Below, one piece after another: positions 5,650 through 54,165 of a stretch of DNA of 64,000 bases. The stretch is taken from NCBI GenBank assembly GCA_041288095.1, contig JBGGMJ010000211.1, forward strand, positions 32,001 to 96,000, given 5' to 3'. Every line of letters begins with the position of its first letter. The first letter of the stretch is position 1. The DNA is from Myxococcota bacterium (GTDB lineage Bacteria > Myxococcota > XYA12-FULL-58-9 > JALHOP01). The position numbers and the translations under genes were made by a program. Below the pieces are notes generated by a model, which made no database searches, was not told the origin of the DNA, and saw only the letters and a list, made by a program, of their open reading frames with translations.

Positions 5650-5676
5650 GCAACTGCGGTCTGTCGCGACCGATAC
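5650..5676 (+). promoter_or_regulatory. Putative sigma-28-like promoter (GCAAC-N14-ACCGATAC)
   Basis: Matches the motif shared by six other intergenic sites; ends 11 nt before ATG 5688. Confidence 0.6.
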
Positions 5677-5687
5677 ACGAGGCCAGC

Positions 5688-6125
5688 ATGGGCACAGTCG
5701 TGAGTTTCGTACGGGGTATCGAGGCCAGGGCCGAAGACGTCAGCCGGCGCGGCAAGCTCAACGCGGCGACCGTCACGTTGGACAGCGGCGCCGTCGTAGC
5801 GCAGCGCGCCACGGCCATCCGACCGCATGAGCATCGCCATATCGAGCTCATGGACCGCTACGGGGCAGTGACCAACGACGCGGACGTGAGCGGCGTTCCC
5901 CTGCGCGCCGCGCACGATGCTTGGCTTGCTTGCCGGGCGGCGCTGGTGGCCGTCGGCGTCGAAGCCGCGGGTGTCGTCAGCTATGCCGGCGAGTACGGTG
6001 ATTGCCGCAAGCTTGCCGTGACCGTCGACCAGCGGCTGGTCGGTCCCTTCTCGATCCTCGACGGCACGCAGCCGCGCGACAGAGGCGCCATCGAAGCCGA
6101 CTTGCGGCGACTGCTAGCGCACTAG
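5688..6125 (+). CDS. Hypothetical protein (145 aa)
   Basis: Fills the gap between two minus-strand genes; GAGG upstream; preceded by the shared promoter motif; no recognisable domain. Confidence 0.55.
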   Translation: MGTVVSFVRGIEARAEDVSRRGKLNAATVTLDSGAVVAQRATAIRPHEHRHIELMDRYGAVTNDADVSGVPLRAAHDAWLACRAALVAVGVEAAGVVSYAGEYGDCRKLAVTVDQRLVGPFSILDGTQPRDRGAIEADLRRLLAH

Positions 6126-6130
6126 AGCTT

Positions 6131-6967
6131 TCACAGCTCCGCGGTAGCGAACGTATCGCAGGTCTTCGAGTCACCGGTCTCGACGCCCTTCTTGAACCAG
6201 CGAACGCGTTGCGCCGAGGTGCCGTGCGTGAAGCTGTCGGGTACGACCCGCCCGCGTGTCTCGCGTTGCAGGTTGTCGTCACCCACGGCGGAGGCGGCGT
6301 TCAGGCCTTCCTCGATGTCGCCAGCCTCGAGTAGTCCGTAGTCGCGGCCGGCATGATGCGCCCAGACGCCGGCGAGGCAGTCGGCTTGTAGCTCGGTGCG
6401 CACGCTGACGGCATTGCCGCGTGGGCCTTGGCGCGCCTGCGCCGTCTGCTCGAACACGCCGATGAGATTTTGCACGTGGTGCCCGACCTCGTGCGCGATG
6501 ACGTACGCCTCGGCGAAGTCGCCAGGAGCGTTGAAGCGGCGGGAGAGCTCTCGATAGAAGGCGAGGTCGAGATAGACCTGTTGATCGCGGGGACAATAGA
6601 ACGGGCCCATCGCGGATTCTCCCATGCCGCAGGCCGAGTCGACGGCGCCGTTGAAGAGCACGAGCTTGGGCTCGCGGTACCCATCGACCTGCTTGCTCCA
6701 CACGTCTTCGGTGCTGGCGAGCACCTTGGCGACGAATTGCTTGCCCGCGTCGTTCACCGGCGCGCTGGCGCTCGGGTCCTCGATGCCGGCGCTGGGCTCG
6801 TCGACCGGCTGGCCCTGAAGTATGTCCCGCGGATCGACACCGAGCAGCATCGAAATGACCGCGACGATGAGCGTGCCTCCGAGCCCTAGCCCTCCCAAGC
6901 GCATGCCGCGCCCCATGCCGCGCCGATCGACGACGTTACCGCTCTCCCGATAGCCCCCGAGCTTCAT
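6131..6967 (-). CDS. YpfJ-like neutral zinc metallopeptidase
   Basis: RESGNVVDRRG N-terminus, MGPFYCP, AHEVGHHVQ (HExxH), ELQADCLAG and SFTHGTSAQR motifs. Confidence 0.92.
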   Translation of the reverse strand: MKLGGYRESGNVVDRRGMGRGMRLGGLGLGGTLIVAVISMLLGVDPRDILQGQPVDEPSAGIEDPSASAPVNDAGKQFVAKVLASTEDVWSKQVDGYREPKLVLFNGAVDSACGMGESAMGPFYCPRDQQVYLDLAFYRELSRRFNAPGDFAEAYVIAHEVGHHVQNLIGVFEQTAQARQGPRGNAVSVRTELQADCLAGVWAHHAGRDYGLLEAGDIEEGLNAASAVGDDNLQRETRGRVVPDSFTHGTSAQRVRWFKKGVETGDSKTCDTFATAEL

Positions 6968-7019
6968 GTGCTCTCCCTGACAGGACACAGACTAACCATG
7001 CTGCTAGTTTCGCGCAGCA

Positions 7020-7703
7020 ATGAGCGTCCATCTCCTCGACCGGCCGGTTTGGAGCGCGCTGACCACGCGCTGGGCGTCGCTCGCGTTGGGCAAGCGCCCT
7101 GCCCTTCGACTGGCGCCGGAATACGGCCTGTTCGCCGCGACCGCCAACGACTCCCCGGACGCCCTGGCTGCTTTAGCGGACTTGGTCGCGCCCCGTGGCG
7201 AAACCTGGCTGGTCGAGATGCACGAGCCGCCGCCGCCACCACGGGTGAACGTCACTCGGCGCGTCGAGCTCTTTCAGATGATCGCCCCATCGCTGACACG
7301 AGCCGCCGTCGCCCCCGTGCCGTTCGTCGAGCTCGGTGACGCCGATGCAGCGGAGATGATCATGCTCGCCATGCTCACCAAGCCCGGCCCGTTCCTCCTG
7401 CGTACTCACCGGTTCGGCGGCTTCATCGGTGTCCGCGACAGCGGCCGGCTCGTCGCCATGGCAGGCACCCGCATGCGACTCCCAGGCTACTGCGAGGTCA
7501 GCGGCGTCTGCACCCATCCCGACTACCGCGGCCGTGGCTATGCCGGCGCTCTGATGCGCGTGGTCTGCCAGCGCATCCTCGACGCGGGCGAGACACCCAT
7601 CTTGCACACCTACGCGGCCAACAAGGGCGCGAACACGCTCTACGAGTCGCTGGGGTTCACGGTGCGCACGCCGGTGACGCTAACGGTGCTCACGAAGGGC
7701 TAG
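7020..7703 (+). CDS. GNAT family N-acetyltransferase (FR47-like)
   Basis: LDRPVWSAL N-terminus; EVSGVCTHPDYRGRGYA acetyl-CoA motif; LYESLGF. Confidence 0.9.
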   Translation: MSVHLLDRPVWSALTTRWASLALGKRPALRLAPEYGLFAATANDSPDALAALADLVAPRGETWLVEMHEPPPPPRVNVTRRVELFQMIAPSLTRAAVAPVPFVELGDADAAEMIMLAMLTKPGPFLLRTHRFGGFIGVRDSGRLVAMAGTRMRLPGYCEVSGVCTHPDYRGRGYAGALMRVVCQRILDAGETPILHTYAANKGANTLYESLGFTVRTPVTLTVLTKG

Positions 7704-8629
7704 GCGCGAAGGTCGAGCTCCCAGGTCTGGCTCACGAGGTCCTTGCCGAACATGTGGTTCGGTTGCTCGTGCACCAGCGTGTAACCCTCCGCCTCGTAGA
7801 TGCGGTGCGCGGACTTGAGGATGCTCTGCGTCCACAGCGTCATCGTGTGATAGCCGGCGCTCCTCGCGAAGCGGGTACACTCCTGGACGAGCTTGCGCCC
7901 AACCCCCAGCCCGCGCGCGGCGCGCTCGACGTAGAGCAGGCGCAGGCGGGCAACTCCGGGACGTTCTCGATGGCGGACAACGAACACCGAGCCCAGCATG
8001 GCGCCGTTGCGCTCCGCCACCCAACAGGACTCCTTGCCTGCTTCGAAATTCTCGATGAAGTCGGCGGTCACCTTCGCGACCAACGCTTCGTAGCCGTCGT
8101 TCCAGTCGTACTCTTCGGCGTAGACGATGGCCTGGCGCGCCGTGATCATGCCCATGTCGCCAATGCGATGCGGGCGCAGAATGACGGCGTCTTTGCCTGG
8201 GCCGGCGCCGAGCTTGTCCTCGATGAGCCGCATGGCAGCGACGAGGTCCCTCCGTGAGCTCTCGCCCAGCGGTTGGACGAGCTCGAGGATCGCCGCGCGG
8301 GCGCGCTTCTGCAGGTCGTTGAAGACCTTGCGGCCGGCCGCGGTCAGCTCGAGGTTGCTGCGACGTGCGTCCGCCTTCGAGCCGGTCCGCTTGATGAGCT
8401 TCTTGCTCTCGAAACCCTTGAGCATGCGGCTCAGGTAGCCGGCGTCGAGGCCCAGGTCGCGGCCGAGGTCACTCGCGGTCGCTTGAGAACGGTTGGCGAT
8501 CTCGTAGAGGGCGCGTACCTGCGCCAGCGAATAGGGACTGTCCAAGTGCCCATCGTCGAGCGCGCCCACCAGCCGGGTGTAGAAGCGGTTGAATTGGCGG
8601 ATCTCGCCGATGTCTGCCTCGATGCCCAT
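7700..8629 (-). CDS. Bifunctional MarR-family regulator / GNAT acetyltransferase
   Basis: IRQFNRFYT and LDAGYLSRML...DARR winged helix followed by GNAT motif LYVERAARGLGVG. Confidence 0.92.
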   Translation of the reverse strand: MGIEADIGEIRQFNRFYTRLVGALDDGHLDSPYSLAQVRALYEIANRSQATASDLGRDLGLDAGYLSRMLKGFESKKLIKRTGSKADARRSNLELTAAGRKVFNDLQKRARAAILELVQPLGESSRRDLVAAMRLIEDKLGAGPGKDAVILRPHRIGDMGMITARQAIVYAEEYDWNDGYEALVAKVTADFIENFEAGKESCWVAERNGAMLGSVFVVRHRERPGVARLRLLYVERAARGLGVGRKLVQECTRFARSAGYHTMTLWTQSILKSAHRIYEAEGYTLVHEQPNHMFGKDLVSQTWELDLRA

Positions 8630-8630
8630 G

Positions 8631-8666
8631 GTTGCCAGAGTCAACTAAATGCTTGCCAGAGTCAAC
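8631..8666. promoter_or_regulatory. Tandem imperfect-palindrome operator (TTGCCAGAGTCAAC x2)
   Basis: Identical 14-mer at 8632-8645 and 8653-8666 (21-bp period), each a near palindrome GTTG.C-N3-G.CAAC, directly upstream of the MarR-GNAT start codon. Confidence 0.75.
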
Positions 8667-8702
8667 GCACTCTCGTGGTGCCACCAGGACATCGTCCTCC
8701 GC

Positions 8703-8729
8703 ACAACCCCGCTGGGAGAGGGTCGATAC
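8703..8729 (+). promoter_or_regulatory. Putative sigma-28-like promoter (ACAAC-N14-GTCGATAC)
   Basis: Shared motif with one mismatch in each box; ends 10 nt before ATG 8740. Confidence 0.5.
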
Positions 8730-8739
8730 AAGCGCTGCC

Positions 8740-9999: not shown

Positions 10000-10409
10000 C
10001 GCTCGACGACTTTCGCGAGCTGCACTAGGTCCCAGAGGTTCCCGTAGAGGTCCTTGAACACCGCCGCCGTACCGTACGGCGCGCTCGTCGGCTCGCGCAC
10101 GAAGGTGATGCCCTTGGCGCGGTAGGCCGCGTAGTCGCGCGCGATGTCGTCGGTGTGCAGGAAGAGAAAGACCCGGCCACCCGATTGGTTGCCGATGAAC
10201 TTCTCCTGTTCGGGTGTGGCCGCGCGCGCCAACAAAAGCTGCGCGCCGCTACCCGCGCCAGGCGGGGCGACGATGACCCAACGCTTCTTCTGCTCGGGAA
10301 CCTCGCTGTCTTCGACGAGGGTAAACCCGAGCTCTCCGACGAAGAAGGCGATGGCTTCGTCGTAATCACGGACGACGAGCGCGATGCACGCAAGTGATTG
10401 ATTGGTCAT
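9996..10409 (-). CDS. VOC / glyoxalase family protein
   Basis: ALVVRDYDEAIAFF, GNQSGGRVFLFL and FKDLYGNLWDL motifs. Confidence 0.92.
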   Translation of the reverse strand: MTNQSLACIALVVRDYDEAIAFFVGELGFTLVEDSEVPEQKKRWVIVAPPGAGSGAQLLLARAATPEQEKFIGNQSGGRVFLFLHTDDIARDYAAYRAKGITFVREPTSAPYGTAAVFKDLYGNLWDLVQLAKVVER

Positions 10410-10432
10410 GTGTCTCCTCGTACATCATCGTC

Positions 10433-11086: not shown

Positions 11087-11104
11087 CGTCTTGCTGTGCG
11101 CAGC

Positions 11105-12667
<1,563 letters not shown>

Positions 12668-12746
12668 GCCCCCGAAATCGCAGAGACGGCTCGGACTCGC
12701 AAGCGTTGAGCGAAGGCGTCGGCTTCGTGGTACAGAAAATGGGCAA

Positions 12747-14105: not shown

Positions 14106-14107
14106 CG

Positions 14108-14800: not shown

Positions 14801-14859
14801 ATGGGGACACTAACCATTTTCGCTATGTGCCGTTGGAAAAATGGTTAGTGTCCCCATTT
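14799..14859. repeat. Perfect 22-bp inverted repeat (REP-like element or bidirectional terminator)
   Basis: AAATGGGGACACTAACCATTTT at 14799-14820 and its exact reverse complement at 14838-14859, 17-nt loop, between convergent ROK and guaB genes. Confidence 0.85.
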
Positions 14860-14864
14860 TACGA

Positions 14865-16352
<1,488 letters not shown>

Positions 16353-16375
16353 TCAACGCGTCACCCCAGACTCGG

Positions 16376-16403
16376 GCAACAGAAGACGATCCCAATCCGA
16401 TAC
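16376..16403 (+). promoter_or_regulatory. Putative sigma-28-like promoter (GCAAC-N15-TCCGATAC)
   Basis: Shared motif upstream of orphan ORF 16458. Confidence 0.55.
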
Positions 16404-16457
16404 TGGGAAACAACGCTGGATTCGCTTGGACCGGGATTTGCCAGCAGGGAGAGGCCA

Positions 16458-16838
16458 ATGAGCATCGACAACGTAGACCGCGCTGGAACCATCATGCCCG
16501 ATATTGGGAACGTGAAGCCCTACAAGGGCCCGAAGCCCAACATCGATCTAACGCAGCTCAGCTACGACCCGACGACCCGCAAGCTTCAGGTCAAGTGGAC
16601 CGCCAGCGACATCATCGAATCGCTGAAGCCCGTCATCGAGAAGAAGAATGGCGAGCTCCACGTGCAGCTCCAGAAGAGCGCGCCTGTTCAGATGAATAGC
16701 ACCGGCGGCTTCACCATTGGCGCGGGTGGCGCGGCCATGACCGAGCACACCGACGATGTGCAGCTTCCGGTGCTGGCCAAGGGCACGACCATCAAAGTGT
16801 GGAACGGCGACGTCGACGCCGGCACCTTCATCGCCTAG
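16458..16838 (+). CDS. Hypothetical protein (126 aa)
   Basis: GGAGAGG RBS, GC3-biased codons, downstream hairpin; no recognisable domain or signal peptide. Confidence 0.75.
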
Positions 16839-16852
16839 AAGCGAACCGAGAC

Positions 16853-16877
16853 GCGGGCGGCACTCAACACCGCCCGC
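16853..16877. terminator. Hairpin between convergent genes
   Basis: GCGGGCGG-N9-CCGCCCGC stem-loop; no U-tract. Confidence 0.45.
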
Positions 16878-16889
16878 ATCCCGCGACCG

Positions 16890-18233: not shown

Positions 18234-18247
18234 GACATCCCTCTCCG

Positions 18248-21560: not shown

Positions 21561-21563
21561 GGG

Positions 21564-34235: not shown

Positions 34236-36818
34236 GTGCGTGCTAACCTCGCGTCGGTGCTCGCGGTCGCCGTCGTTGCCTGGGTCACAGTCGCTTCGCC
34301 GCCGGCGGTGTCGCCGTGTGCGCGGGTCACCGTCACGGCCTCCCTCGACCCCAGATCCCATGACATCACCGGGACCGCCACATGCACCGTAGCCCGCGAT
34401 ACGCGCCTGCGCGCCGCGACCTACCCCCGTCTCCTGCGCACGCCTGCCGGGGTCAATGATGTGCGGCAGCCATGGTTCTATCCGCAAGGCTTCGACCCTG
34501 CCGACATGGCACTCAGCGACGAGGCAGGCGTGGCGCTGAACGGCGACGGCGCCTGGCAGGACCTGGGTGCCCGACGGGCCGGCGAGCTCGTCACGCTCCA
34601 CTTCGTGACCCGCGTGCCGCGGCGTAACGGCGTCCTGGGCGAGCGTGACGGCACCTTCTATATGCTCGGCGGCTGGCACCCGGCGTTCGCCGACGAAGGC
34701 ACCCCGGTCGCGGCGACGACCGTCGAGCTCCACCTGACGGCGCCGCGCCACACCGTCGGCTTCGCGGGCGAGACGCCATTTGGTGCGCACGCGCCCAGGC
34801 GGGTCGACGGCGTCATGGAAGCGCGGTTCGTGCCCTGGCTGGTCGCCGGCTCGGCCTCGGTGAAGCTGCGCGACGCGGCCGTGGTCATCACGCCGGCGGC
34901 CGCGCCGCGGGGCGAGACGCCTTATGACCTGCGCGAAATCACGGCTGGGCTCGATGGGCTCGCGTCCCGTGAGCTCTCCGAGACCCTCGAGGTCGGCGCC
35001 AACTGGGCCGATGCCCAAGTCCTGCCGCGCCGCCGGCTCATCGTCGTGCTGGCGCCGCTCCGAGAACGCCTGGTCGAGCGCTTCGACGGTGGCTTCGCGG
35101 TCTCGGATCGAGCTTTTCACGTCGCGTCGATCTTGCAGCGCCTGCATCGCCTGGCCATTTGGCGCGCCCAGCTCGCGAGCTATGCCCTGCCCAAGGCTCG
35201 GTCCGCTGAAGCGGGTCCTGACGCTCTACCCGCCGAGCTCGTCGCCGATACGCTCGGGGTCATCATGCGCGACGCCTTGGCGCGCAATCTCTACCGCAGC
35301 AACGAGCACGCGGCACAGATGCTCGAGCACATCGCCATCATCCCGGAGATCGACTCTCTCATCTTCGCTCCGCAAGTGGCCTTCGCCGACGCTTACTACG
35401 AAGCCATCGACGAGACGCCGGTCGTCGCCAATCACCTCGACGACTTCGACACGACGCTCCCGCGCGGCAAGATGGTCGCCGTAAAGCTCGTCGACCGCGT
35501 CGGTGACGCCGGCGCGCTCGCCATCGCCCAGGCGTATCTGCCGAGCACCTCGAACTGGCTCTCGCTGGTGCGGGCCGGTGCCGGCGACGAGGTGGTGACC
35601 GCCCTGCGCGAGTGGCTGGGGCCGGCGCCGAAGGTCGACTATGTCCTCGCGGATATCGAGACCCTGCCGGAGGGCACGCGCGTCCGCATAGATGCCGTCG
35701 GGCCCGACGCCGACAAGGTGCACGAGCCGATCATGGTGCGCCTGCGCCTCCCCGGCAAACATCGGCTCGAGGCGACGCGTATCGGCCCCGGTGAGCTGTT
35801 TTTTCCGGGCAAGGAGAAGCCGAAGCTCGTCGAGCTCGATCCGTTCGAGCGGACGGTCCAGCTCGCGACCCAGCCCGGAGAGACCACGCGCTACAACGAC
35901 CGCAGCACGCCGCGCTGGCGCTTTCTCTTGAACGACATCACCGGCCTCTTCCAGATCACCAATCAGCAAGTGAGCGCCAGCGCCGACTTCGCGCTGCGGC
36001 GCATTCACGACCTTCGCTACGCCTTCGGCTTCAGCGCCTCTTACGCGCCGGAGTCGGTGGGCGTATCGGCGAGCGCGGCCTACAAGTTCGGAAAGGCCGT
36101 GACACCCTTGCAGCTCGCCGACCGCATCGGTGTCGGCATCGGCTACAATCGCCTGCGCGGCGAGTTCGACGACGCGACTCCAGGCGATCTCTTGTCGCTG
36201 TCTATCGGCTACGGCCACGACGACCGCCTGAATCCGTACTTCAGCTTCGAAGGCTCGGGCTGGTCTCTGTCGAGCGGCGTCGCTTATGGCCGCGATGACC
36301 GCGGCGTCGACTACGTCTTCGGGCAGGTCGGCGCCGGCGTGCTCCACATCTGGCAGCTCGCGTTGGGCCACGCCCTGGTCGGCCGACTACGAGGCGACGT
36401 GTTGATCGGCCAGGCTCCCAAGCAGAGCGAGCTGCGCCTCGGCGGCCGCTATCGCGGCGGGCGCGGTTACGAGGTCAACGAGGCGCGCGGCACGGAGCGC
36501 ATCACCGCCAGCGCCGAGTATCGCCACATCCTCGAGAACGACATGCGCTCGGACTGGCTGCGCCTCTTCACGTTCACGCGTGTCGAAGGCGCCTTCTTCT
36601 CCGACGTCATCGTGCTACCGGTTGACCGCGCCGGCTGCCAGCGCTCGGTGTTCACCGATGTCGGCTACAGCGTTCGCTTCATCGGCGACGTGTTCAACCT
36701 CTACACCAGCTCCCTGGGCTTCGACTTCGGCTTCCCGCTCAACCGCTGTCCCGACGAGAGCGACCGCTTCCCGGTCACCATCTACGCGTCGTTCTTACAG
36801 TCGTTCGCGTCGTTCTAA
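34236..36818 (+). CDS. Exported protein: aminopeptidase-like N-terminal region plus Omp85-like C-terminal barrel
   Basis: Signal peptide, GWHP-containing beta region, alternating beta strands, LGGRYRGGRGY loop motif, terminal Phe. Confidence 0.6.
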   Translation: MRANLASVLAVAVVAWVTVASPPAVSPCARVTVTASLDPRSHDITGTATCTVARDTRLRAATYPRLLRTPAGVNDVRQPWFYPQGFDPADMALSDEAGVALNGDGAWQDLGARRAGELVTLHFVTRVPRRNGVLGERDGTFYMLGGWHPAFADEGTPVAATTVELHLTAPRHTVGFAGETPFGAHAPRRVDGVMEARFVPWLVAGSASVKLRDAAVVITPAAAPRGETPYDLREITAGLDGLASRELSETLEVGANWADAQVLPRRRLIVVLAPLRERLVERFDGGFAVSDRAFHVASILQRLHRLAIWRAQLASYALPKARSAEAGPDALPAELVADTLGVIMRDALARNLYRSNEHAAQMLEHIAIIPEIDSLIFAPQVAFADAYYEAIDETPVVANHLDDFDTTLPRGKMVAVKLVDRVGDAGALAIAQAYLPSTSNWLSLVRAGAGDEVVTALREWLGPAPKVDYVLADIETLPEGTRVRIDAVGPDADKVHEPIMVRLRLPGKHRLEATRIGPGELFFPGKEKPKLVELDPFERTVQLATQPGETTRYNDRSTPRWRFLLNDITGLFQITNQQVSASADFALRRIHDLRYAFGFSASYAPESVGVSASAAYKFGKAVTPLQLADRIGVGIGYNRLRGEFDDATPGDLLSLSIGYGHDDRLNPYFSFEGSGWSLSSGVAYGRDDRGVDYVFGQVGAGVLHIWQLALGHALVGRLRGDVLIGQAPKQSELRLGGRYRGGRGYEVNEARGTERITASAEYRHILENDMRSDWLRLFTFTRVEGAFFSDVIVLPVDRAGCQRSVFTDVGYSVRFIGDVFNLYTSSLGFDFGFPLNRCPDESDRFPVTIYASFLQSFASF

Positions 36819-37096
36819 CGGCGTTCGGCACGCATCGCCGCTTGGGCGCCCAGCAAGAACGCCGGCACCAGGTCGCTATTGAGCTTCGTGAAATCACCGA
36901 TGGTGTAAACGCCGAGGCGCGACAACTTCGCGGCGCGCTCGGGGCCGACCTGCAGCAGCGACTGGACGCTCTCGCGCGAGAGGTTGACCAGAGGCGTGAG
37001 GCCGTTGCGGCGGCGATAGGCGTTCTCGTCGACCAAGGCGCGGCGAACAGGCGCGTCGAGGTAGGCCGCGGTGCGTTGGGTAAGACCGATTCTCAT
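36815..37096 (-). CDS. Small protein with helix-hairpin-helix-like motif
   Basis: SLLQVGPERAAKLSRLGVYTIGDF resembles HhH motifs; GGAGG RBS before ATG 37096. Confidence 0.6.
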   Translation of the reverse strand: MRIGLTQRTAAYLDAPVRRALVDENAYRRRNGLTPLVNLSRESVQSLLQVGPERAAKLSRLGVYTIGDFTKLNSDLVPAFLLGAQAAMRAERR

Positions 37097-37166: not shown

Positions 37167-37436
37167 TCAGGTGGAACGTTGGTCATCCCGGAGGGCGGCT
37201 TCGGCCAAGGCGCGGACGTCCTCCGTCAATCCGAGGTGGCGCGCGCCTCCCGAAAACGGGCACTTGCCGGACTTTCCGGTCGCCCCGCTGCCGCCGCTCT
37301 TGGCCGCCTCGGTGTGCGCCGCGAGGAAGGCCTCGAGGGTGATGCCGTCTGACAAAGTGGCAGCAACGGCCGCCGGTTGCGCGGGGGCCGGGCTGAGAAC
37401 CGCTGCGTCACGAAGGGCTTCGAGCTTCACGTCCAT
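37167..37436 (-). CDS. Small hypothetical protein (89 aa) with GKCPF motif
   Basis: GGAGG RBS; low-complexity Ala/Pro/Gly sequence; preceded by the shared promoter motif. Confidence 0.6.
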   Translation of the reverse strand: MDVKLEALRDAAVLSPAPAQPAAVAATLSDGITLEAFLAAHTEAAKSGGSGATGKSGKCPFSGGARHLGLTEDVRALAEAALRDDQRST

Positions 37437-40814: not shown

Positions 40815-42555
40815 GCAAACCCTCGACCGGCGTCAGGGAGGACCCACGGAGCGCGGGGAAAACAGCGAAATTCCAAACGATGAGAAGAGCGGAAAGGGCT
40901 ACGAGGACGACGTCAGAGACCTCCAGATGCACGGGGAGCGCATCGATATAGTAGACGTCGTTGGGAAGCCAGAGCCTCCGGAGGCCGGCAACGAGGATGA
41001 GCGCGAGCACCACCCCGACGGCGATCCCGAAGCCGCCGACGAGCAAGCCTTGGGTGATGAAGATCTTCATGATGCCCGCGTCGTGGGCACCCATGGTCTT
41101 CAAGATGGCGATCTCTTTCTTCTTCTCGATGACGCTCATGGTGAGCGTGTTCACGATCGAGAAGCTCGCGACCAAGATGATGAAGACCAGCACGATGAAG
41201 GCAACGACACGCTCGAGCTTCAAGGCCGCGAACAGCGTCTGGTTGCGAACCTTCCAGTCCACCAAGGTGAGCGGCGCGGTCGCGCTCTTGGCGTTCGCGA
41301 GCGCGGCGTTGCCGTAGATGTCGCTCTTCTCTGGATCGGCGGTGAGGATCTGAACGCCGGTCGCCTCGTGGGGGCCGAGCTCGTAGAAGCGGCGCGCTTC
41401 GTCGAGGGACACGAAGGTGAGGTGCGCGTCGTATTCGTACATCTTGCTCGAAAAGACACCGACCACCTGGAGGCTCACCGACTTGGGCGCGACCCCGACG
41501 GGTGTCAGCACTTCGAGGAGTGGTGAAAGGACGCGCAGCTTGTCGCCCACCTTCACCTGGAGGCTGTTCGCCATCTCGACGCCGATGACGATGCCGGGCA
41601 CCTTCGCCGGAGGCGCGAACTCGGCGTCACTCTCGATCGGCTTGCCCGCGTCCAGCGGCGCCTTGAGGCCGTCGAGGCTGCCGCGGGTGATCTGGCCGAG
41701 CACGGTGATCACGCTCGGCGCTCGGAAGGGATCGATGCCGACCATCAGCGCGGTGCCGGTATAGTTGGCGCCGGGATTCGCGACCGCGACCTCACCTTGA
41801 ACGTAAGGAGACGCCGCGACCACACCGGAAGTCGCGGCGATTTCGTCGACCAGCGTAGGTGTCAGCTGCAGCGGACGCCCGTCGGCGGCCTCGATGCTCG
41901 CATGCGCATTGGCGCCGATAATCTTGGTGCGCAGGTCGCCTTCGAACCCCGACAGCACCGCGAGAGCGCCGATGACGGCCATGACGCCGACCGCGACACC
42001 GATGATCGAGATGGCGGTGACGATCGAGACCGCCTGCGAGCTCTTCGACAAGAGAAAGCGCCGACCAATCATCGCCTCGTAGCCGAGGCGCATGCTCGAC
42101 GGCCCGCTGGTGAGGAAGAGAAAGCCGACCGAGGCTCCGAAGTAGGTGCACGCCGCGAGGGCCGCCGGCGCGATGAGCAAGGCGCGCAAGGGAGCGGAGG
42201 TGAGGCCGTGCTCGCCCGGCCCCATGACCGCGAGGACGGCGGCGAGGTCGAGCACGAGGAGGCAGCCGACGAACAGCTCCCAGGTAGGCATGCGCTTGAG
42301 CACCGCGGCGGCGGTGAGGCCGACGAGCATGGACGTCGCGCAAGCCCAGAGCCACAGCAGTGTCGGCTCGCGCTCGAGCGTCAGCGACGAGCGCATGTAG
42401 ATGACCCACAACACGCTGCCGGAGACCGCGAGCGCGCCGGTGATCGCGGCGGCGGCGCGGAGCGAGAAGCGGCGTGAAGCAAGCCGTCGTCGCGCCAACC
42501 CCGTGAGTGCGAGCTGCACCAACAGGAGAATGGCGATGACGACGAGACCGCTCAC
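40804..42555 (-). CDS. LolC/E family permease with extra N-terminal membrane domain
   Basis: SIIGVAVGV...[20 protein letters not shown] and VYYIDALP motifs; between lysS and lolD; GTGA overlap with lysS. Confidence 0.9.
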
Positions 42556-44066
42556 GTCGTTCGGCGGAGCTGCGGGAAGAGGATGACCTCGCGGATCGAG
42601 AGCGCATTGGTGAAGAGCATCACCAAGCGATCGATACCGAGACCGAAACCGCCGGTCGGCGGCATGCCGTGCTCGAGGGCGCGGACGTAGTCCTCGTCCA
42701 TTTGATGCGCTTCTTGGTCGCCTGCCTCGCGTTGAGCGAGCTGGCCTTCGAAGCGTGCCTTTTGATCGAGCGGATCGTTGAGCTCGGAGAAGCCGTTGGC
42801 GAACTCGCGTCCGGCGATGAAGAGCTCGAAGCGATCGACGAACCACGGGTTCGAAGGCTTCTTGCGCGCGAGCGGCGAGACGTCGAGTGGGAAGTCGTAC
42901 ACGAACGTGGGCTGAATGAGTTTCTGCTCGGCGAAGTGCTCGAAGAGCGCCACGACGCGCCCCCCCGACGTCATCCCCTTCTGCCAAAGACTCAAGCTCT
43001 TCAAGAGCTCCGTCGACTTGGCTTCGTCACGCGCCTCTTCGGGCGACGGGCCTCCGTGCTTATGGATGGCCTCGAGCATCGACAGGCGTTGAAACGGCGC
43101 CGCCATCGAGATCTCGTGTTCGCCAAAGCGGATGTTGGTGGTACCGAGCACCGCCTGGGCCGCGCCCGCGAGCAGGTCCTCGATGAACCGCATCAGCTTC
43201 TGGTAGTCGCTGTACGCTTCGTACGACTCCAGCATGGTGAACTCCGGATTGTGGAAGGTGCTGATGCCCTCGTTCCGGAAGTTGCGGTTGATCTCGAAGA
43301 CACGCTCGAGGCCGCCGACCACCAGGCGCTTCAAGTAGAGCTCCGGCGCGATGCGCAGGTAGAGGTCGACGTCGAGCGTGTTGTGATGCGTCTTGAACGG
43401 ACGCGCCGCGGCGCCGCCGGCGATTGGATGCATCATCGGCGTCTCGACCTCGAGGAAGTCGTTCTTCACGAAGAAGTCGCGGATCCAATGCACGAGGCGC
43501 GAGCGGATGCGGAAGATGCGGCGCGTCTCGGCGTTCGAGACCAAGTCGAGGTAGCGCTGGCGATAGCGGATCTCGGTATCGGTCACGCCGTGCCACTTTT
43601 CCGGAAGTGGCCGTAGGGTCTTGGTGATGATGCGGAACAGCGAAGCCGCGATGGACAGCTCGCCGGTCTTGGTCCGCATCGGCGTACCGACGACACCGAT
43701 GAAGTCGCCGATGTCCATGTGCTTCAAGAGCTCGAAGGCCTTTTCGCCGACCTTGTCCTTCTTGAGGTAGATCTGGAGCTTGCCGACGGGCTCGTTGTTG
43801 GGGCCCAAGTCGTCGGTCGTGCCGTCCTGGATGCGCAGGAACGCGGCCTTGCCCATGAGGTTCACGGCGACGACACGGCCTGCGATGGCGTGATTCTCGG
43901 TCACGGCTTCGAGAGCGGCGGCTGATTGCTCGGTGGCGTAGCGTTTCACGAAGGCCGCGACGGTGGTGTCGACCGCGAAGTCGTTGGCGTAGGGGTCGAT
44001 TCCAAGCTCGCGCAATTCGTTGGTCTTGCGCAGGCGCTGCTCGTACTGCTCGTCGCGTTCAGTCAT
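42552..44066 (-). CDS. lysS: Lysine--tRNA ligase (class II)
   Basis: PLPEKWHG, RYRQRYLDL, GGAAARPF, RIAPELYLKRL and GMPPTGGFGLGIDRL motifs. Confidence 0.98.
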   Translation of the reverse strand: MTERDEQYEQRLRKTNELRELGIDPYANDFAVDTTVAAFVKRYATEQSAAALEAVTENHAIAGRVVAVNLMGKAAFLRIQDGTTDDLGPNNEPVGKLQIYLKKDKVGEKAFELLKHMDIGDFIGVVGTPMRTKTGELSIAASLFRIITKTLRPLPEKWHGVTDTEIRYRQRYLDLVSNAETRRIFRIRSRLVHWIRDFFVKNDFLEVETPMMHPIAGGAAARPFKTHHNTLDVDLYLRIAPELYLKRLVVGGLERVFEINRNFRNEGISTFHNPEFTMLESYEAYSDYQKLMRFIEDLLAGAAQAVLGTTNIRFGEHEISMAAPFQRLSMLEAIHKHGGPSPEEARDEAKSTELLKSLSLWQKGMTSGGRVVALFEHFAEQKLIQPTFVYDFPLDVSPLARKKPSNPWFVDRFELFIAGREFANGFSELNDPLDQKARFEGQLAQREAGDQEAHQMDEDYVRALEHGMPPTGGFGLGIDRLVMLFTNALSIREVILFPQLRRTT

Positions 44067-44177
44067 GGGGGTCGCGCGCGCAATAGCGTGCGGAATCGAA
44101 GGGGTCAAGCAACGGATTTTGTGAGTCGAAACGCCATCGTAGAGGCCTGTCCGGGTATGTGGTAAACCCTGGAAACG

Positions 44178-45827
44178 ATGTGCTTGCGCACCGTGGCTCT
44201 GGCCACGACCATGGCCTTCCTCGCCACCGGCACCGCTGCCGAGGTTGCCGCCTCTCCCGAGCGCGTGGCGGTGGCGGGAAAGCGCGCTCCATCCAAGAAG
44301 GCCAAGGCCTCGAGCAAACGTCCACCACCTCCCGAGCCGGAGCTCGAGGCACCGGCGCTCGAAGAGCCACCGAAGCCCGCAAGCGCCGCAACTCCAGTCG
44401 CGTCGCAGGGGCCGCCGACGCTCTCCACCAAGTACCGAGCGGTGGCCATTCTGCCCTTCGATACATCGGACGTTGGTGAGTCGCTCATCCGCTCGATCGA
44501 ACAGGCCCTCATCAACGAGATCGAGGACAAAGGCGGGTTTCGCGCCGTGTCGCCGCGCGACGTCGTGAGCGAAGCGGCTTCCTACGACATGAGCCCGGGC
44601 AAGTGCGCGAACGAAGATGTTGCCTGCTGGGCTCAGGTGGCCCGTCACGCCCGCGCCCACCTCGCGATCGTCACGCGCGTCGCCGCCCTCGGCGGCGTGC
44701 TCAACTTGTCGCTCCGCCTGCTCGATGCGCAGACCGGCAGCGAGGTCGGCCGCGTCGCCGAGGCTCTGTCCGAGAAAACGGACGAGCGCGCCGCCCAGAT
44801 GCATCGGATGGCCGTGCAGTTGTTCACGCCGGCGGAGTACGTCGGCACGCTCATCGTCAAAAGCGACGAAGCCGGCGCCGACATCTACCTGAACGACAAG
44901 CTCGTCGGCACCACCCCGCTCAAGGCGCCGCTCAAGAGCTTGCCGGCGGGTCCCTACATCTTGCACGTCACCAAGGAAGGCTTCGCCGACGTCTACCAGT
45001 TCGTCGACGTCGCCTATAACCGCGTCTCGACCATCACGGTGAGCCTCGCCACCAACACCATTTCGGGCGCCATCGCTTTCGGCTCCGACACGGGCTTCGG
45101 CAGCGTGTACGTCATTTCGGACTTGCCCGAGGTCGAGGTGCGTATCGACGGCGAGCCCAAAGGCATGACGCCGCTCGAAGGCGCGATCTCGCAAGTCCCT
45201 GCCGGCAGCCGGCGCTTGTCTCTGCGTCGTGGCAACGCCGCGCCGCTGGTGCGCGAGCTCAAGGTCGAGAAAGGAAAGCGCACCGACGTCGGCGTCAGCG
45301 TGGGCCCGGACGGCACCCTCACGGCGGTGGTCATGGTGAGCTCCTTGGACAGCCCCTTGCCGGTCGACCCAGGCCTGTCGACGCCGGTCGCGGGCGTCAA
45401 GGCAGCCGGGCCCACCGCCGAAGCCAGCCATCCAGTCTTCACGAGCGGACTCGTGGTTGCCGGCGTGGGTGTGGTGGCGCTCGGCATCGGCGGCGTATTC
45501 GCGAGTCAAGTGCGCTCCGCCAACAACGCGGCCAAGGACTACGAGCGCACCATTCGTGAAAGTGACGACCCCGTGGAGCGCAACGAGGCGCGCGAGGATC
45601 TCGCCCAGCTCAACGAGGACGGTCCGGGCAAGGAGCGCAATCAGTGGATCGCGCTCGGCATCGGAGGGGGCTTGTTGCTCACCGGGGGCCTGCTCATGGC
45701 GGCGGATCATTGGCACTGGTTCGGCATCGGCGCGCAGAGCGCCGGCCGCGACCGGGACGATGGGCTCCGTATCGGGGTGATGCCGGGCCCTGGCGGCGGA
45801 ATGGTGAGCATCGCGACACCGTGGTAG
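44178..45827 (+). CDS. PEGA domain-containing exported/membrane protein
   Basis: Signal peptide, two PEGA-like repeats (GADIYLND..VGTTPL; VRIDGE..GMTPL), C-terminal Gly-rich hydrophobic segments. Confidence 0.85.
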   Translation: MCLRTVALATTMAFLATGTAAEVAASPERVAVAGKRAPSKKAKASSKRPPPPEPELEAPALEEPPKPASAATPVASQGPPTLSTKYRAVAILPFDTSDVGESLIRSIEQALINEIEDKGGFRAVSPRDVVSEAASYDMSPGKCANEDVACWAQVARHARAHLAIVTRVAALGGVLNLSLRLLDAQTGSEVGRVAEALSEKTDERAAQMHRMAVQLFTPAEYVGTLIVKSDEAGADIYLNDKLVGTTPLKAPLKSLPAGPYILHVTKEGFADVYQFVDVAYNRVSTITVSLATNTISGAIAFGSDTGFGSVYVISDLPEVEVRIDGEPKGMTPLEGAISQVPAGSRRLSLRRGNAAPLVRELKVEKGKRTDVGVSVGPDGTLTAVVMVSSLDSPLPVDPGLSTPVAGVKAAGPTAEASHPVFTSGLVVAGVGVVALGIGGVFASQVRSANNAAKDYERTIRESDDPVERNEAREDLAQLNEDGPGKERNQWIALGIGGGLLLTGGLLMAADHWHWFGIGAQSAGRDRDDGLRIGVMPGPGGGMVSIATPW

Positions 45828-50325: not shown

Positions 50326-50328
50326 CGC

Positions 50329-51442
50329 CTACTCGAGCTCTTTCTGATCGGTCGCTGTCTTACCCAGCAGATACGACTCGATGAAGCCATCGAGGTCGCC
50401 GTCGAGGACAGCGTCGGTGTTGCCCGCTTCGTGTCCGGTGCGATGATCCTTCACGAGACGATACGGCTGCAGAACGTACGAACGGATCTGCGAGCCCCAC
50501 TCGATCTTCTTGCGGTCACCGGCGAGCTTCTCGCGCTCTTCATCGCGCTTGCGCAGCTCGAGCTCGAAGAGCTTGGCGCGCAGCATCTTCATCGCCTTGG
50601 CGCGGTTCTTGTGCTGGCTACGCTCCGCCTGACAGGCGACGACGATGCCGGTGGGCATGTGCGTCAGGCGGATGGCCGACTCCGTCTTGTTGACGTGCTG
50701 ACCGCCCGCTCCGCTCGAGCGGTAGGTATCGACACGCAGATCTTCGTCGCGGATCTCCACCTGCACGTCGTCGTCGATCTCGGGCGCTGTCGCGACCGAG
50801 GCAAACGAGGTGTGACGACGCTTGGCCGAGTCGTAGGGGCTGATGCGCACCAAGCGGTGCACTCCCTGCTCCGCCTTCAGATACCCATAGGCGTACGGGC
50901 CGGTGATCTCGAGCGAGGCGCTCTTGATGCCGGCTTCTTCGCCGTGCTGGATGTCGAGCACCTCGACCTTGAAGTCGTGCTGCTCGGCCCAGCGGCTGAG
51001 CATGCGCATGAGCATCTGCGCCCAATCCTGGCTCTCGGTGCCGCCGGCTCCGGCGTTGATCGAGAGGAGCGCGTTGTTCTTGTCGTATTCGCCACCGAGC
51101 ATGCGCTGCAGCTCGAACTGCTCGATGGTCTTCTTCGCCGTGCCGATGTTGTTGTCGACCTCGGCGGCAATCTCGGCGTCCTGGTCGGCGAGCTCGAGCA
51201 AGCCGTCGGCGTCCGAGATCAGCTTTCCCACGTAGCGGAACTGCTGCACGACGCGCTCGAGCCGCGTGCGTTCTTGCTGGAGCTTGGCGGCGGCCTGGGC
51301 GTCTTGCCAGAGGGCGGGGTCACCCGAGCGTTCTTCTATCTCGACGAGCTGTCTCTCCAAGCCGGCGATGTCAAAGATGCCTCCGCAGCAAGGAGACTCG
51401 GTCTTGGAGCTGCGTGAGGAGTGGCTTGCGGTCGTCGCTCAT
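50329..51442 (-). CDS. prfB: Peptide chain release factor 2 (programmed +1 frameshift)
   Basis: GAGGTESQDW, HRLVRISPY, GAGGQHVN and WGSQIRSY motifs; 23-codon first frame from ATG 51442 ends in CTT-TGA-C. Confidence 0.97.
51370..51384 (-). promoter_or_regulatory. prfB frameshift site (internal SD plus CTT TGA C)
   Basis: Minus strand reads GGAGG-CAT-CTT-TGA-C; +1 shift gives GAC ATC GCC GGC TTG, in frame with the main ORF. Confidence 0.95.
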
Positions 51443-51476
51443 GGAGCAGGCATCTGCATGCCCAGCCTCGTGAAAG

Positions 51477-54089
51477 TCAACCGCTCTGCGCGACTCGGTC
51501 GGCGATAGTCTTGGCGAACTGGTGCACGTTCGCCATCGTGCTCATCGAGAGGACCTCATTGGCGTAGAAAATCCCGCCCTCGCCTTGGAGGTTTCGGGCG
51601 CGCTCGAAGAACTTCTCCATGCGCATGGCGTCGCCGTCGACATGAGGGAAGAACTTCCAGCGTCGGGCTTCGACGAGCTCGACCGAGGTAGCTCCGAGCT
51701 TCTCCATGTCGCCACGGATCTTGGCTACGACATCGGCGTCGCTGAGCTGCTCCGGCGCAAAGAGGTGGAAGATGCAGAGGTCGTCGTCGGGGTAGCGCTT
51801 GATCCACGCCATCGGGTGACCGGCGCGGTCCTCGCGCATGTTTTCGCGCAGGTACCCGACTTCGGCGCGCCCGTCGGCAACGCCCCGCACGCGGCAGGCG
51901 AAGGTGCTGTACGGCATGTGCTTGACCAGGCCGAAGAGCTGCTGCTGTTCGGGTGGCGCGTCGATGAATTCGAGCGACTGCTTGAGGTCGCAAGCGACGA
52001 CGACGCGATCGAAGTGTTGCTTGCCGGCGGCGGTGTGCACGATGGCGGTGCCGTCATCGCGCGACTCCAGGCGCCGCACCGGGGTCGACAGCTTGACGTC
52101 GAGGTCCTTGGCGACGCCTTCCCAGATGGGAGTCGTGCCGTGCTTCCACATGAGGAGCTCGCCGCTGCCGGCGCCGACGATGGTCTGCGGCCCGAGCATG
52201 CGCATGCCGAACACCGACGGTGTGTCGCCGGGGAAACCGTAGCCGTAACCAGTCAGATAGGTATCGAGCGCCGGCGCGAAGGCTTCGAAACCCTGGCGTG
52301 AGGCTACGATGCCGAGCGGCTCGGCGAGGTCTTCGTGGGGCACTTCGAGGCCGTCGCCGGCCTGATTACGAGCCTTGAAGTTCGTGACCATGTAGCGCAG
52401 CGCGCCGGCGTAGAACGCGGCCGTCTCCGAGAACGTGCGCGGTGGTCGGGCTTTGCCGGTCGAGAGGTCGTACTGCACCTGCTGCGGAAAGCTCGTGGTG
52501 TGCACGCCGTGCTCTAGGCCCAGCGCCACGATCCCGTCGTACATGCGTGGCACGCCCATGGTTGCGCCCATGTCGTGCTCGCGTCCGTTGAAGCGGACGG
52601 TGAAGCTCTTGCCTCCGACGCGGTCGTCGGCCTCGAGAACCGTGACGTTGGCGTAGCCCTGGCTGCGCAGATCGTGCGCAACCGAGAGGCCCGAAGGACC
52701 GGCGCCGACCACGCAGATCGCTGCGTTCTTCGCGAGCGGCTCGTCGCGTGGGGGTCGTGGCTTCGCGGCGGCATCGACCGCCTGGGTGTGCGCCTCGACC
52801 TCGTCGACACAGGCGCGGATCGCCGCCACCTGCTCGGGCGTCGCACGCAGGGCGTCGAGCTTGGCGCGGCTCGGCATCTCGCGCACCGGCTTGACGCTCG
52901 CGTCCGGTCCGCCTTTGCGGAAAACGAACTGGTCGACGTTCATGTGTCCGCTGCGGAAGCCACCGGCGATGCCCAGCAGATACATGTCCTGCATGCGCTT
53001 GAATCGGTCGTTGTAGCGCTCGCCGCGCAGCTCGGGCCAGGCGGCTTCGAAGTTCGCATGCCAGGCGAGCAACGTCTTGTCGTAGCTGTCGGTGATGCGC
53101 TGTACGTCCTCGGCCGCCCCGAACCAGTCCGCCGCCGCGGTGTCGATCTGCTCGCGCGAGGGACACAGACCGTCGCGGAAGATGTACTCGCCCATCCAGG
53201 CGTTGCAGCGCACCTTGCTCTTGGGCTCGAGGATGGCTTGCAGAGCGAAGCTGCCGCCGGGCTTCAGGCACGCCTGGGCGCATTCGAAGTAGCCGCGGAA
53301 GTTCTTGGGACCGACCGCTTCGATCATCTCGATGGAGACCACGTGATCGAAGTGGTCCTTGGGGAAGCGCTTCGCGAGGTCGCGATAGTCGCTGTAGATG
53401 AACGACACGCCGCCGATGTCCTTCGAGAGCGCGCGGGCGAGCTTGAGCTGCTCGTTCGAGATGGTGATGCCGACGACCTCGGCGCCGTAGTGCTTGGCGG
53501 CGTAGCGGGCAAAGCCGCCGAAGCCGCAGCCGATGTCGAGGACGCGGTCACCGGGCTTCAACCCCATCTTACGACACAAGAGATCGTGCTTGGCGTTCTG
53601 CGCGTCCTCGAGGGTGTAGCCGTCGGCATAGACGCCGCTGGTGTACGCCAGGGTCGGCCCGAGCATGCGCGCGTAGAGGGGGTTGCCAACGTCGTAGTGT
53701 TCCTTGGCGACGTTGGTCGAGCGCGTGATGGTCTGGCGGTTGAAGAAGATGGCGAGGGCGTCGCGGTAGAGGTGGCGTGCCGCGGCCTCGGCGAGGAGCA
53801 ACGGCGTCCGCGTGATCACGTCGGCCGTGAACAGGCGCTCCTTGGCCTTGATGGCGGTGAGCCGCGCGGTCAGCTCGTCGAGCGACTTACAGTCCCAGAG
53901 GCCGTCCATGTATGTGACGCCGAGCTGCATGTCCGGGTCACGGAGGACCCGGGCGTAGAAGCTCGGGTCGTGGACGGTGACGTCCTGAGGTGCGTTGCCG
54001 CCGATGCGGACGCCGGCAGCGGCCAGGAGCTCGGTGACGGTGCGTTGTGCGGGCGAAATAGCGCCCTTACCGACGTGTCCGTTGCTCAT
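51477..54089 (-). CDS. Fusion: cyclopropane-fatty-acyl synthase-type methyltransferase plus FAD-dependent (PUFA isomerase-like) domain
   Basis: N-half HYDVGN, VLDIGCGFGG, VSIEMIEAVG, YDKTLLAW; C-half VVGAGPSG, LEADDRVGGK, DMGATMGVP; one uninterrupted ORF. Confidence 0.85.
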   Translation of the reverse strand: MSNGHVGKGAISPAQRTVTELLAAAGVRIGGNAPQDVTVHDPSFYARVLRDPDMQLGVTYMDGLWDCKSLDELTARLTAIKAKERLFTADVITRTPLLLAEAAARHLYRDALAIFFNRQTITRSTNVAKEHYDVGNPLYARMLGPTLAYTSGVYADGYTLEDAQNAKHDLLCRKMGLKPGDRVLDIGCGFGGFARYAAKHYGAEVVGITISNEQLKLARALSKDIGGVSFIYSDYRDLAKRFPKDHFDHVVSIEMIEAVGPKNFRGYFECAQACLKPGGSFALQAILEPKSKVRCNAWMGEYIFRDGLCPSREQIDTAAADWFGAAEDVQRITDSYDKTLLAWHANFEAAWPELRGERYNDRFKRMQDMYLLGIAGGFRSGHMNVDQFVFRKGGPDASVKPVREMPSRAKLDALRATPEQVAAIRACVDEVEAHTQAVDAAAKPRPPRDEPLAKNAAICVVGAGPSGLSVAHDLRSQGYANVTVLEADDRVGGKSFTVRFNGREHDMGATMGVPRMYDGIVALGLEHGVHTTSFPQQVQYDLSTGKARPPRTFSETAAFYAGALRYMVTNFKARNQAGDGLEVPHEDLAEPLGIVASRQGFEAFAPALDTYLTGYGYGFPGDTPSVFGMRMLGPQTIVGAGSGELLMWKHGTTPIWEGVAKDLDVKLSTPVRRLESRDDGTAIVHTAAGKQHFDRVVVACDLKQSLEFIDAPPEQQQLFGLVKHMPYSTFACRVRGVADGRAEVGYLRENMREDRAGHPMAWIKRYPDDDLCIFHLFAPEQLSDADVVAKIRGDMEKLGATSVELVEARRWKFFPHVDGDAMRMEKFFERARNLQGEGGIFYANEVLSMSTMANVHQFAKTIADRVAQSG

Positions 54090-54098
54090 GGTCCTAGT

Positions 54099-54126
54099 TT
54101 TTCGGCAACCCACCCGCCGGCGGTGC
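54099..54126 (-). promoter_or_regulatory. Putative sigma-28-like promoter (GCACC-N15-GCCGAAAA)
   Basis: Shared motif ending 9 nt before ATG 54089. Confidence 0.6.
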
Positions 54127-54137
54127 GTGGACCCGCC

Positions 54138-54165
54138 GCACCGCCGCGTACCTTTTGGCCGATAA
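54138..54165 (+). promoter_or_regulatory. Putative sigma-28-like promoter (GCACC-N15-GCCGATAA)
   Basis: Perfect sigma-28 -10 consensus; back-to-back with the minus-strand copy. Confidence 0.65.

Follow-up and report, generated by a model that had tools for sequence, protein, structure and literature searches.

In Bdellovibrio bacteriovorus, the attack-phase regulon of the sigma-28 factor FliA is marked by the sequence TTAAG-N16-CCGATA, which was reported for 92 of the 140 attack-phase promoters that had been mapped; of the attack-phase genes, 59% are reported as 'hypothetical' (Karunker et al. 2013, PMC3627812). WhiG, a member of the same family in the Actinomycetota, is described in connection with sporulation in Streptomyces and with type IV pili in Rubrobacter (PMC8325347; 10.64898/2026.01.14.699351). 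The open complex reported for the Pseudomonas aeruginosa fliC promoter places the two promoter boxes at (-36)TCTAAAG(-30) and (-15)GCCGATAA(-8), and names S224 and Q228 as the sigma residues touching positions -36 to -34 (PMC12784957). Here we describe a promoter element, aCGCAAC-N14/15-GCCGATAAt, in a 64,000-nt stretch of DNA (the window; G000:C211:32001-96000) from an uncultured Myxococcota bacterium (G000; assembly GCA_041288095.1; 5.85 Mb in 212 contigs, 66% G+C, about 90% complete), together with a sigma factor that probably reads it. No literature on this sigma factor or motif in the Myxococcota was found in a search that lay outside subscription papers and supplements.

The element is present seven times in the window, and these seven sites are members of one promoter class that extends over the genome. 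Hexamers were counted in the 2679 oriented upstream regions of G000 with a spacer of at least 40 nt, using gene calls from our own codon-statistics caller (4821 genes, 91% coding). CGATAA (186 observed versus 20.6 expected; 69 antisense) and CCGATA (231 versus 35.2) are among the most enriched upstream hexamers; TTGACA is also enriched (76 versus 6.2). Alignment of 533 upstream CGATA sites revealed GCAAC 14 nt 5' of GC-CGATA-A and nothing else conserved, and a position weight matrix learned genome-wide by iterative refinement yielded the consensus given above, with spacers N14 and N15 in a ratio of 266:130. The first-pass annotation had proposed weighing upstream copies of the motif against those in coding sequence, and the upstream-sense bias is strong: at the main threshold of at least 16 bits, there are 378 upstream-sense sites versus 27 in convergent intergenic regions and 140 in coding sequence (both strands), the latter being about ten times larger. 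Local shuffling, repeated three times, left about 90 matches in coding sequence and 9 to 12 between genes. The strict pattern GCAACN{15,16}CCGATA occurs 117 times in G000, versus four times for its reversed form.

Counted by first genes, the sites serve 364 different ones, and the number rises to about 502 if genes closely following these are included; judged from these sites, the regulon would cover about a tenth of the genes in G000. The dispersed regulon that the first-pass annotation had drawn from seven sites thus stands as regards the shared motif, which is real, but its scale is far larger, at about 364 transcription units. The class is also found in relatives: genomes of the same genus hold 91-143 copies of the strict pattern versus 2-3 for the control, other members of the order hold 1-60, and most other orders are at background.

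All seven sites lie where the first-pass annotation had placed them and on the strands it had given, each being intergenic and pointing at the next gene. With the genome-wide matrix they score 18.2-24.3 bits and are the sole positions in the window that reach 16 bits, the next best scoring 15.9. The pattern GCAACN{16,17}CGATA matches three times in the window versus 0.15 expected, a number that none of 100 dinucleotide shuffles reached.

The geometry of the element is that of a sigma-28 promoter. Its -10 box agrees with GCCGATAA at 8/8 positions (matrix G-C-C-G-A-T-A-A, 0.8 to 2.6 bits per position), as expected from its earlier designation as the FliA/sigma-28 consensus. The upstream box, CGCAAC, falls at -35 to -30 (GCAAC at -34 to -30) and replaces CTAAAG in the same register as in the solved Pseudomonas fliC promoter, which upholds the shifted -35 specificity that had been proposed. 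The canonical combination TAAA-N14-16-GCCGATAA occurs 0 times in G000, looser TAAA-type patterns are not enriched there (three intergenic matches versus one in the control), and no second -35 class appeared among the 139 of 350 CGATA sites with a weak -35 score.

The distance to the start codon is consistent with the same numbering. Among 435 sites of at least 14 bits, the interval between the C of CGATA and the start codon cuts off sharply at its lower end, being 8-11 nt at 3 sites and 12-17 nt at 54, with a second broad group at 25-60 nt; the nine sites at less than 8 nt are probably due to mis-called starts such as 54166. This edge fits a transcription start at +13 after the C of CGATAA in fliC numbering, and transcription is predicted to begin about 13 nt after this base. 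Given that prediction and the 54 start codons at 12-17 nt, approximately one in eight of the promoters would be leaderless or nearly so, which suggests that many mRNAs are leaderless in the lineage of G000. In the window, the genes starting at 5688, 8740 and 54089 are the predicted candidates.

The proposal of a sigma-28-type promoter had called for a sigma factor of that family, and two are present in G000 with a third in the genus. The G000 inventory comprises RpoD, two more RpoD-like genes, RpoH, about 30 genes like those of extracytoplasmic function (ECF) sigma factors, and two genes that best match FliA/WhiG, here called the C92 type and the C127 type (Table 1). Both paralogues score below the curated cut-off of the NCBIfam model TIGR02479 (189.6 bits), with FliA_WhiG still the best family for both. 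The best Protein Data Bank (PDB) chains for the C92 type are 9wsm/9wsf (FliA), 6pfv (entered in the PDB table simply as 'RNA polymerase sigma factor'), 1rp3 and 6pmi, with E values from 6e-27 to 3e-22, and the closest solved relatives of the C127 type are similar (FliA/WhiG structures). The third gene, found in sister genomes, is a canonical FliA that scores 215-237 bits, above the cut-off, and resides in a flagellar cluster with rod proteins, two flagellins and FlgM (G001:C2:511000-547500, G002:C2 and G005:C48; loci L164 and L165). Neither this cluster nor its FliA was found in the approximately 90% complete G000 assembly, in which a lone FHIPEP gene was the only such gene detected.

The flagellin genes of G001 and G005, which adjoin the canonical FliA, carry CTAAAG-N14-G(G/T)CGATG. 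The flagellar FliA thus goes with the canonical box and not with GCAAC, and the reader of the class would be an alternative, non-flagellar sigma factor of sigma-28 (FliA/WhiG) type. In G015, which has 42 copies of the motif, no flagellin or rod gene was found, nor was a canonical FliA-like paralogue detected by two sigma queries, the FliA_WhiG family model not having been run on that genome.

The C92-type sigma factor is the likely reader, judging from its recognition helix, its own gene cluster and its distribution. It keeps a sigma-28-type region 2 (RIRGA), which is invariant in relatives down to 48% identity. Its -35 helix reads LGLSKSW(T/A)SRLH in place of the canonical (L/G)xSESRVSQLH, and the altered form LSKSW.SR.H is invariant in 25/25 aligned relatives, again down to 48% identity. 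This helix is not the canonical one: of the two contact residues, SKSWTSRLH retains the Ser but has Arg in the place of the Gln. Residues S224 and Q228 of the Pseudomonas factor align to S271 and R275 of the C92 type, and the neighbouring Arg has become Trp. The retention of region 2 may explain why the -10 box GCCGATAA is unchanged, and the altered helix why the -35 box would read CGCAAC instead of CTAAAG.

The gene for the C92-type sigma factor belongs to a module conserved across the Myxococcota (G000:C92:23691-24182 and C92:35188-38065; loci L111-L149), which encodes a 185-aa Gly-rich protein, a 138-aa tetratricopeptide repeat (TPR) protein, a fast-evolving protein of about 150 aa, the sigma factor and a protein of about 165 aa. 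A survey of 39 relatives' loci (238 kb) found the TPR protein in 34 and the ~165-aa protein likewise in 34. Over these loci, 54 sites of at least 16 bits lie on the strand of the sigma gene versus eight on the other; a site precedes the cluster in 18/32 loci and a site falls just after the sigma gene in 22/38, where it precedes the conserved ~165-aa gene. In G000, a 20.4-bit site stands before the cluster of 185-aa, TPR, 159-aa and sigma genes, and the ~165-aa homologue (C92:23691-24182) also has a site. Since the sigma cluster itself carries the motif, the circuit is probably self-reinforcing.

The motif also tracks the C92 type among genomes. In a survey of 151 Myxococcota genomes, in which counts of the strict pattern were set against the identity of the C92-type homologue, the median count is 30 where the homologue has at least 63% identity (n = 23), 10 at 50-62% (n = 28), 5 at 35-49% (n = 39) and 2 where there is none (n = 61). 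Within genus g18, 17 copies are present in the one member that has a homologue, compared with 0 to 2 in the four members lacking it. G005, an apparent exception with 60 copies, does hold a C92 gene, whose first 51 codons run off a contig end beside conserved neighbours, and two strong sites precede its C92-type cluster.

Several points weigh against assigning the motif to the C92 type. Co-occurrence among genomes is confounded by relatedness, and the Mann-Whitney figure overstates the case. G022, G055 and G094 have no found homologue yet hold 14 to 18 copies, and the incomplete genomes G148 and G114 have 15 and 41. Conversely, the Myxococcaceae have a homologue of 45% identity with the same helix and show no enrichment of the strict pattern. 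The argument from helix to box consists of one solved complex and an alignment. Individual start codons may be wrong, since the gene calls come from our own caller, and the upstream regions counted with the matrix were also those used to train it, so that independent controls matter; those free of the matrix are the exact pattern versus its reversed form and the hexamer counts. Lastly, the C127 type may contribute, because the genomes that hold this paralogue are exactly those with the highest counts (91-143 and 60).

That the motif is read by the C127 type, alone or together with the C92 type, is nevertheless unlikely. Close orthologues of the C127 type exist only in this genus and in G005 (59% identity), with distant ones in two other genomes, and it matches FliA_WhiG at 166 bits. 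A FlgM-like gene of about 79 aa, which our own gene caller missed, directly follows it in 4/4 genomes (G000:C127:21744-22805, G001:C10, G002:C20 and G005:C6); it thus looks like a duplicated FliA-FlgM pair apart from the flagellar one, FlgM-like genes adjoining both the flagellar FliA and the C127-type sigma. Yet its recognition helix, TDSRVCQLH, is canonical and so resembles the helix of the flagellar FliA, the factor that here accompanies CTAAAG promoters. The motif is moreover enriched in many genomes that lack the C127 type (37 copies in G004, 42 in G015, 40 in G020 and 45 in G025), and no motif was found upstream of the C127-type gene when the sigma genes were checked with operons joined across gaps of less than 40 nt.

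An AAC at -35 and a CG at -10, 16 nt apart, form the usual layout of ECF promoters, and the AAC-N16-CG spacing of the motif resembles it. The genome has about 30 ECF-like genes and 36 Sigma70_r2 matches, and one of the ECF-like genes is the second gene of an operon behind an 18.2-bit site. A group 4 sigma factor is nonetheless a highly improbable reader. ECF sigma factors usually autoregulate, but the motif directly precedes none of the sigma genes examined, no ECF-like gene having a site of at least 12 bits there, and the single ECF-like gene behind a site is strain-specific, its best within-genus match having 39% identity. The -10 box extends over all 8 nt of GCCGATAA, its ATAA being conserved, and is not a short CGT-type box; ECF regulons are usually far smaller than about 364 units, and the motif is linked to the C92-type cluster instead.

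It is barely credible that the motif represents the principal housekeeping promoter or is read by a group 1/2 paralogue (C89 or C128), in which case GATAAT would take the part of a TATAAT-like -10 box. The bases ATAAt are indeed the last five of TATAAT, there are two extra RpoD-like genes, and the motif is the sharpest promoter signal in the genome. Its targets, however, are overwhelmingly non-core, GCCG at -15 to -12 is a sigma-28 signature, and a separate, weak TTGAC-N17/18-TA class exists that pairs with CGATA in just 4/227 cases. A bipartite transcription-factor site or dispersed repeat has next to no chance of being the explanation, given the strict orientation, the fixed lower distance limit to start codons, the absence of conservation outside the two boxes and a geometry identical to that of the solved sigma-28 promoter. 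Recognition by the C92-type sigma factor thus remains the reading we favour.

Consistent with an earlier remark on orphan genes, the targets of the motif are mostly proteins without a Pfam family. Such proteins account for 51/60 of the best-scoring first genes (threshold 1e-6) and, at a threshold of 1e-5, for 30/40 of a random sample of the remaining 298 first genes and 5/7 of the window targets, or 86/107 sampled targets in total, versus 11/46 of the other window genes (also at 1e-5; Fisher p = 5e-11). Target proteins are also shorter (26% under 150 aa versus 14% of others) and more basic (median pI 7.8 versus 6.4), and their cysteine content is 0.58 times that of other proteins in every length class tested. 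Signal peptides were recognised in 6.6% of targets versus 22.5% of others, by a crude regular expression only. Spurious open reading frames (ORFs) were rejected as a source of the orphans, the coding score per codon being 0.34 for targets and 0.36 for other genes. Paralogy was likewise rejected as a source of the motif: a paralogue of any kind exists for 114/364 target proteins, and no family consisting of targets has more than four members.

Named targets include peptidases of families M20, C11 and S8, a beta-lactamase-fold hydrolase, a GH3 glycosidase, a serpin, glutathione peroxidase, di-haem peroxidase and amine oxidases. The first-pass annotation had described the targets as non-flagellar, and none of those sampled is flagellar apart from the lone FHIPEP gene (FlhA/SctV-type export gate; G000:C31:3248-5781), which has a 20.4-bit site 386 nt upstream; it is the only FHIPEP gene in the assembly and stands by itself, with no flagellar neighbours. 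In G000 the pilus genes do not belong to the targets: a site was found at 0/12 pilin-like genes and 1/8 secretion-ATPase operons. The Bdellovibrio analogy, and the fact that the named members include hydrolases, peroxidases and enzymes of lipid modification, lead us to infer that the targets may form a switchable life-stage or stress programme.

Table 1. Promoters and target genes in the window (window coordinates), and the two FliA/WhiG-type sigma genes of G000
Feature	Position	Strand	Details
Promoter GCAAC-N14-ACCGATAC	5650..5676	+	21.9 bits; predicted start ~5684, leader 4 nt
Target gene, 145 aa, no known family	5688..6125	+	no Pfam match
Promoter ACAAC-N14-GTCGATAC	8703..8729	+	19.8 bits; predicted start ~8737, leader 3 nt
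Target gene, 419 aa	8740..9999	+	no Pfam family at 1e-5; alpha/beta hydrolase or lipase look
Promoter GCAAC-N15-TCCGATAC	16376..16403	+	18.6 bits; exact-pattern match; leader ~47 nt
Target gene, 126 aa, no known family	16458..16838	+	no Pfam match
Promoter GAAAC-N15-CACGATAA	37122..37149	-	18.2 bits
Target gene, 93 aa, no known family	36815..37096	-	start revised to 37096
Promoter GCAAC-N14-CCCGATAA	37460..37486	-	24.3 bits, best in window; exact-pattern match
Target gene, 89 aa, no known family	37167..37436	-	no Pfam match
Promoter GCACC-N15-GCCGAAAA	54099..54126	-	20.3 bits; predicted start ~54091, leader 2 nt
Target gene, 870 aa	51477..54089	-	Pfam CMAS 5.6e-66 and Amino_oxidase 1.2e-23
Promoter GCACC-N15-GCCGATAA	54138..54165	+	20.1 bits; divergent from the 54099-54126 promoter
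Fatty acid desaturase gene	54166..55080	+	Pfam FA_desaturase 2e-21, from residue 85
C92-type sigma factor	G000:C92:35188-36072		294 aa; FliA_WhiG 163.7 bits
C127-type sigma factor	G000:C127:21744-22571		275 aa; FliA_WhiG 166.1 bits

At five of the seven window promoters (5650, 8703, 37149, 54126 and 54138), the boxes are kept in sister genomes and the spacers differ; the comparison left out 16376, and 37486 has no counterpart there. Both boxes of the 5650 promoter are kept in the sister genome G002, where the stretch from the -10 box to the ATG has diverged. The Atlas search gave no usable match for its 145-aa target. The 8703 promoter retains its -35 box (as GCAAC) and its -10 box (GTCGATAC) in G002 around a wholly different spacer. 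Its 419-aa target has an Atlas feature score of 0.97 to alpha/beta-hydrolase (LIP/Peptidase_S9) clusters, on which the best 10/10 agree; a lipase-type alpha/beta hydrolase is suggested as a lead only. Between this promoter and the start of a divergent MarR-GNAT gene (7700-8629, minus strand), the 14-mer TTGCCAGAGTCAAC is found twice at 8632-8666, the two copies beginning 21 nt from each other. G002 retains one of them, and the repeat is probably the MarR operator.

The gene behind the 37149 site had been given a start at 37186, which is most likely 37096 instead: GGAGG precedes the ATG at 37096, which is also where the G001 and G003 orthologues start. The longer ORF version of this gene has no Pfam match. 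Its orthologue in G001 is preceded by the same GAAAC-N15-CACGATAA with another spacer, and that in G003 by GCAAC-N14-GTCGATAA. By alignment, the 89-aa gene at 37167..37436 has no counterpart at the corresponding place in G001 or G003; thus, genes appear to turn over while the promoter type stays.

The lipid-modifying genes that had been noted among the targets are confirmed by Pfam as a cyclopropane-synthase-like gene and a desaturase gene. The 870-aa target is, from its family matches, a cyclopropane-fatty-acid-synthase-like methyltransferase fused to a flavin amine oxidase, and both boxes of its promoter at 54126 are kept in G002. The divergent 54138 promoter is retained there as GCACC-N15-GCCGATAT. 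The reading frame of the desaturase gene stands as listed, but its start is uncertain and lies downstream of 54166, because the ATG at this position abuts the -10 box and is replaced by AGA in G002, in which the TTG at 54175 is conserved. Elsewhere in the window, a class II lysyl/aspartyl-type tRNA synthetase core takes up just the C-terminal ~450 residues of a 1052-aa protein (42552-45710, minus strand), whose N-terminal ~600 residues have no Pfam family; the layout is reminiscent of lysyl-lipid synthase fusions.

Apart from the TPR protein and the sigma factor, the products of the C92 module belong to no known family, and no flagellar or FlgM family gene was found in the cluster. The ~150-aa neighbour (159 aa in G000) begins M-x-R-I-G-G-G-G-P; its 23 members gave no Pfam family (best E 0.008, scattered) and no solved relative (best E 0.21). 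This fast-evolving protein is the obvious candidate for an anti-sigma factor that would hold the programme off. A likeness of the C-termini of the 185-aa and ~165-aa proteins to type III needle or rod proteins found no support, as there was no Pfam match at E <= 0.01 and no relevant PDB match; similarly, the resemblance of the small TPR protein to type III chaperones came down to generic TPR matches. It is distinctly doubtful that the module is a non-flagellar, secretion-coupled checkpoint like FliA/FlgM. The ~150-aa protein would then be an exported anti-sigma factor, FHIPEP would be part of the exporter, and many of the cysteine-poor orphans, apparently without signal peptides, would be its substrates, for example effectors against prey or competitors.

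What is new in these observations is a distinct, phylum-wide paralogue with a re-specified -35 box that exists beside the canonical flagellar FliA in the same genus, a conserved five-gene module around it that bears the motif, and the size and 'dark' gene content of its putative regulon. As a rule, alternative sigma regulons comprise few genes and serve a known function, and this one would span about a tenth of the genes; if true, several hundred 'dark' genes are united by one sequence rule as a single co-regulated set. The paralogues of the genus also offer a natural experiment on sigma specificity, in that they share a -10 box and read different -35 boxes, the C92 type, as the likely reader of CGCAAC, differing by an invariant change of three to four residues in the recognition helix. 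A homologue that shares this helix is annotated, under generic names only, in cultured Myxococcus, Pyxidicoccus, Corallococcus, Stigmatella and Archangium, and one 9-Mb single-contig Myxococcaceae genome (L166; G119:C1:2838000-2841000) has a 278-aa homologue with the helix QSKSWASRLH and the ~165-aa gene directly downstream. Since Myxococcus, Corallococcus, Stigmatella and Archangium are in culture, the prediction is testable without culturing the present organism.

Compared with the known systems, the promoter class of G000 resembles WhiG, as far as that factor is described in the sources cited above, in the apparent re-use of a sigma-28-family member for a non-flagellar, developmental programme, and differs from it in that WhiG is described as being under the control of the anti-sigma factor RsiG and c-di-GMP; no RsiG-like partner was found here, although no search was aimed at one. 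WhiG keeps the canonical promoter, and its regulons are small by comparison. Chlamydia represents a further non-flagellar use of sigma-28. As in the published account of Bdellovibrio, a sigma-28-type promoter would drive a large and mostly non-flagellar set with many hypothetical genes. That account, however, describes a single flagellar FliA, a near-canonical -35 box, a regulon that includes flagellar genes and start sites that were mapped, whereas in G000 the start sites are predicted ones, and a second paralogue, distinct in its recognition helix, is implicated along with CGCAAC as the -35 box, the sister flagellins keeping the canonical promoter. With the canonical FliA promoter (TAAA-N15-GCCGATAA; P. 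aeruginosa fliC, PMC12784957), as far as that report describes it, the class shares the -10 box, the spacing, the register and, in its likely reader, the RIRGA of region 2; it differs in the CGCAAC -35 box, in the Arg aligned with Q228 and the adjacent change from Arg to Trp, and in sampled targets that, FHIPEP apart, are non-flagellar.

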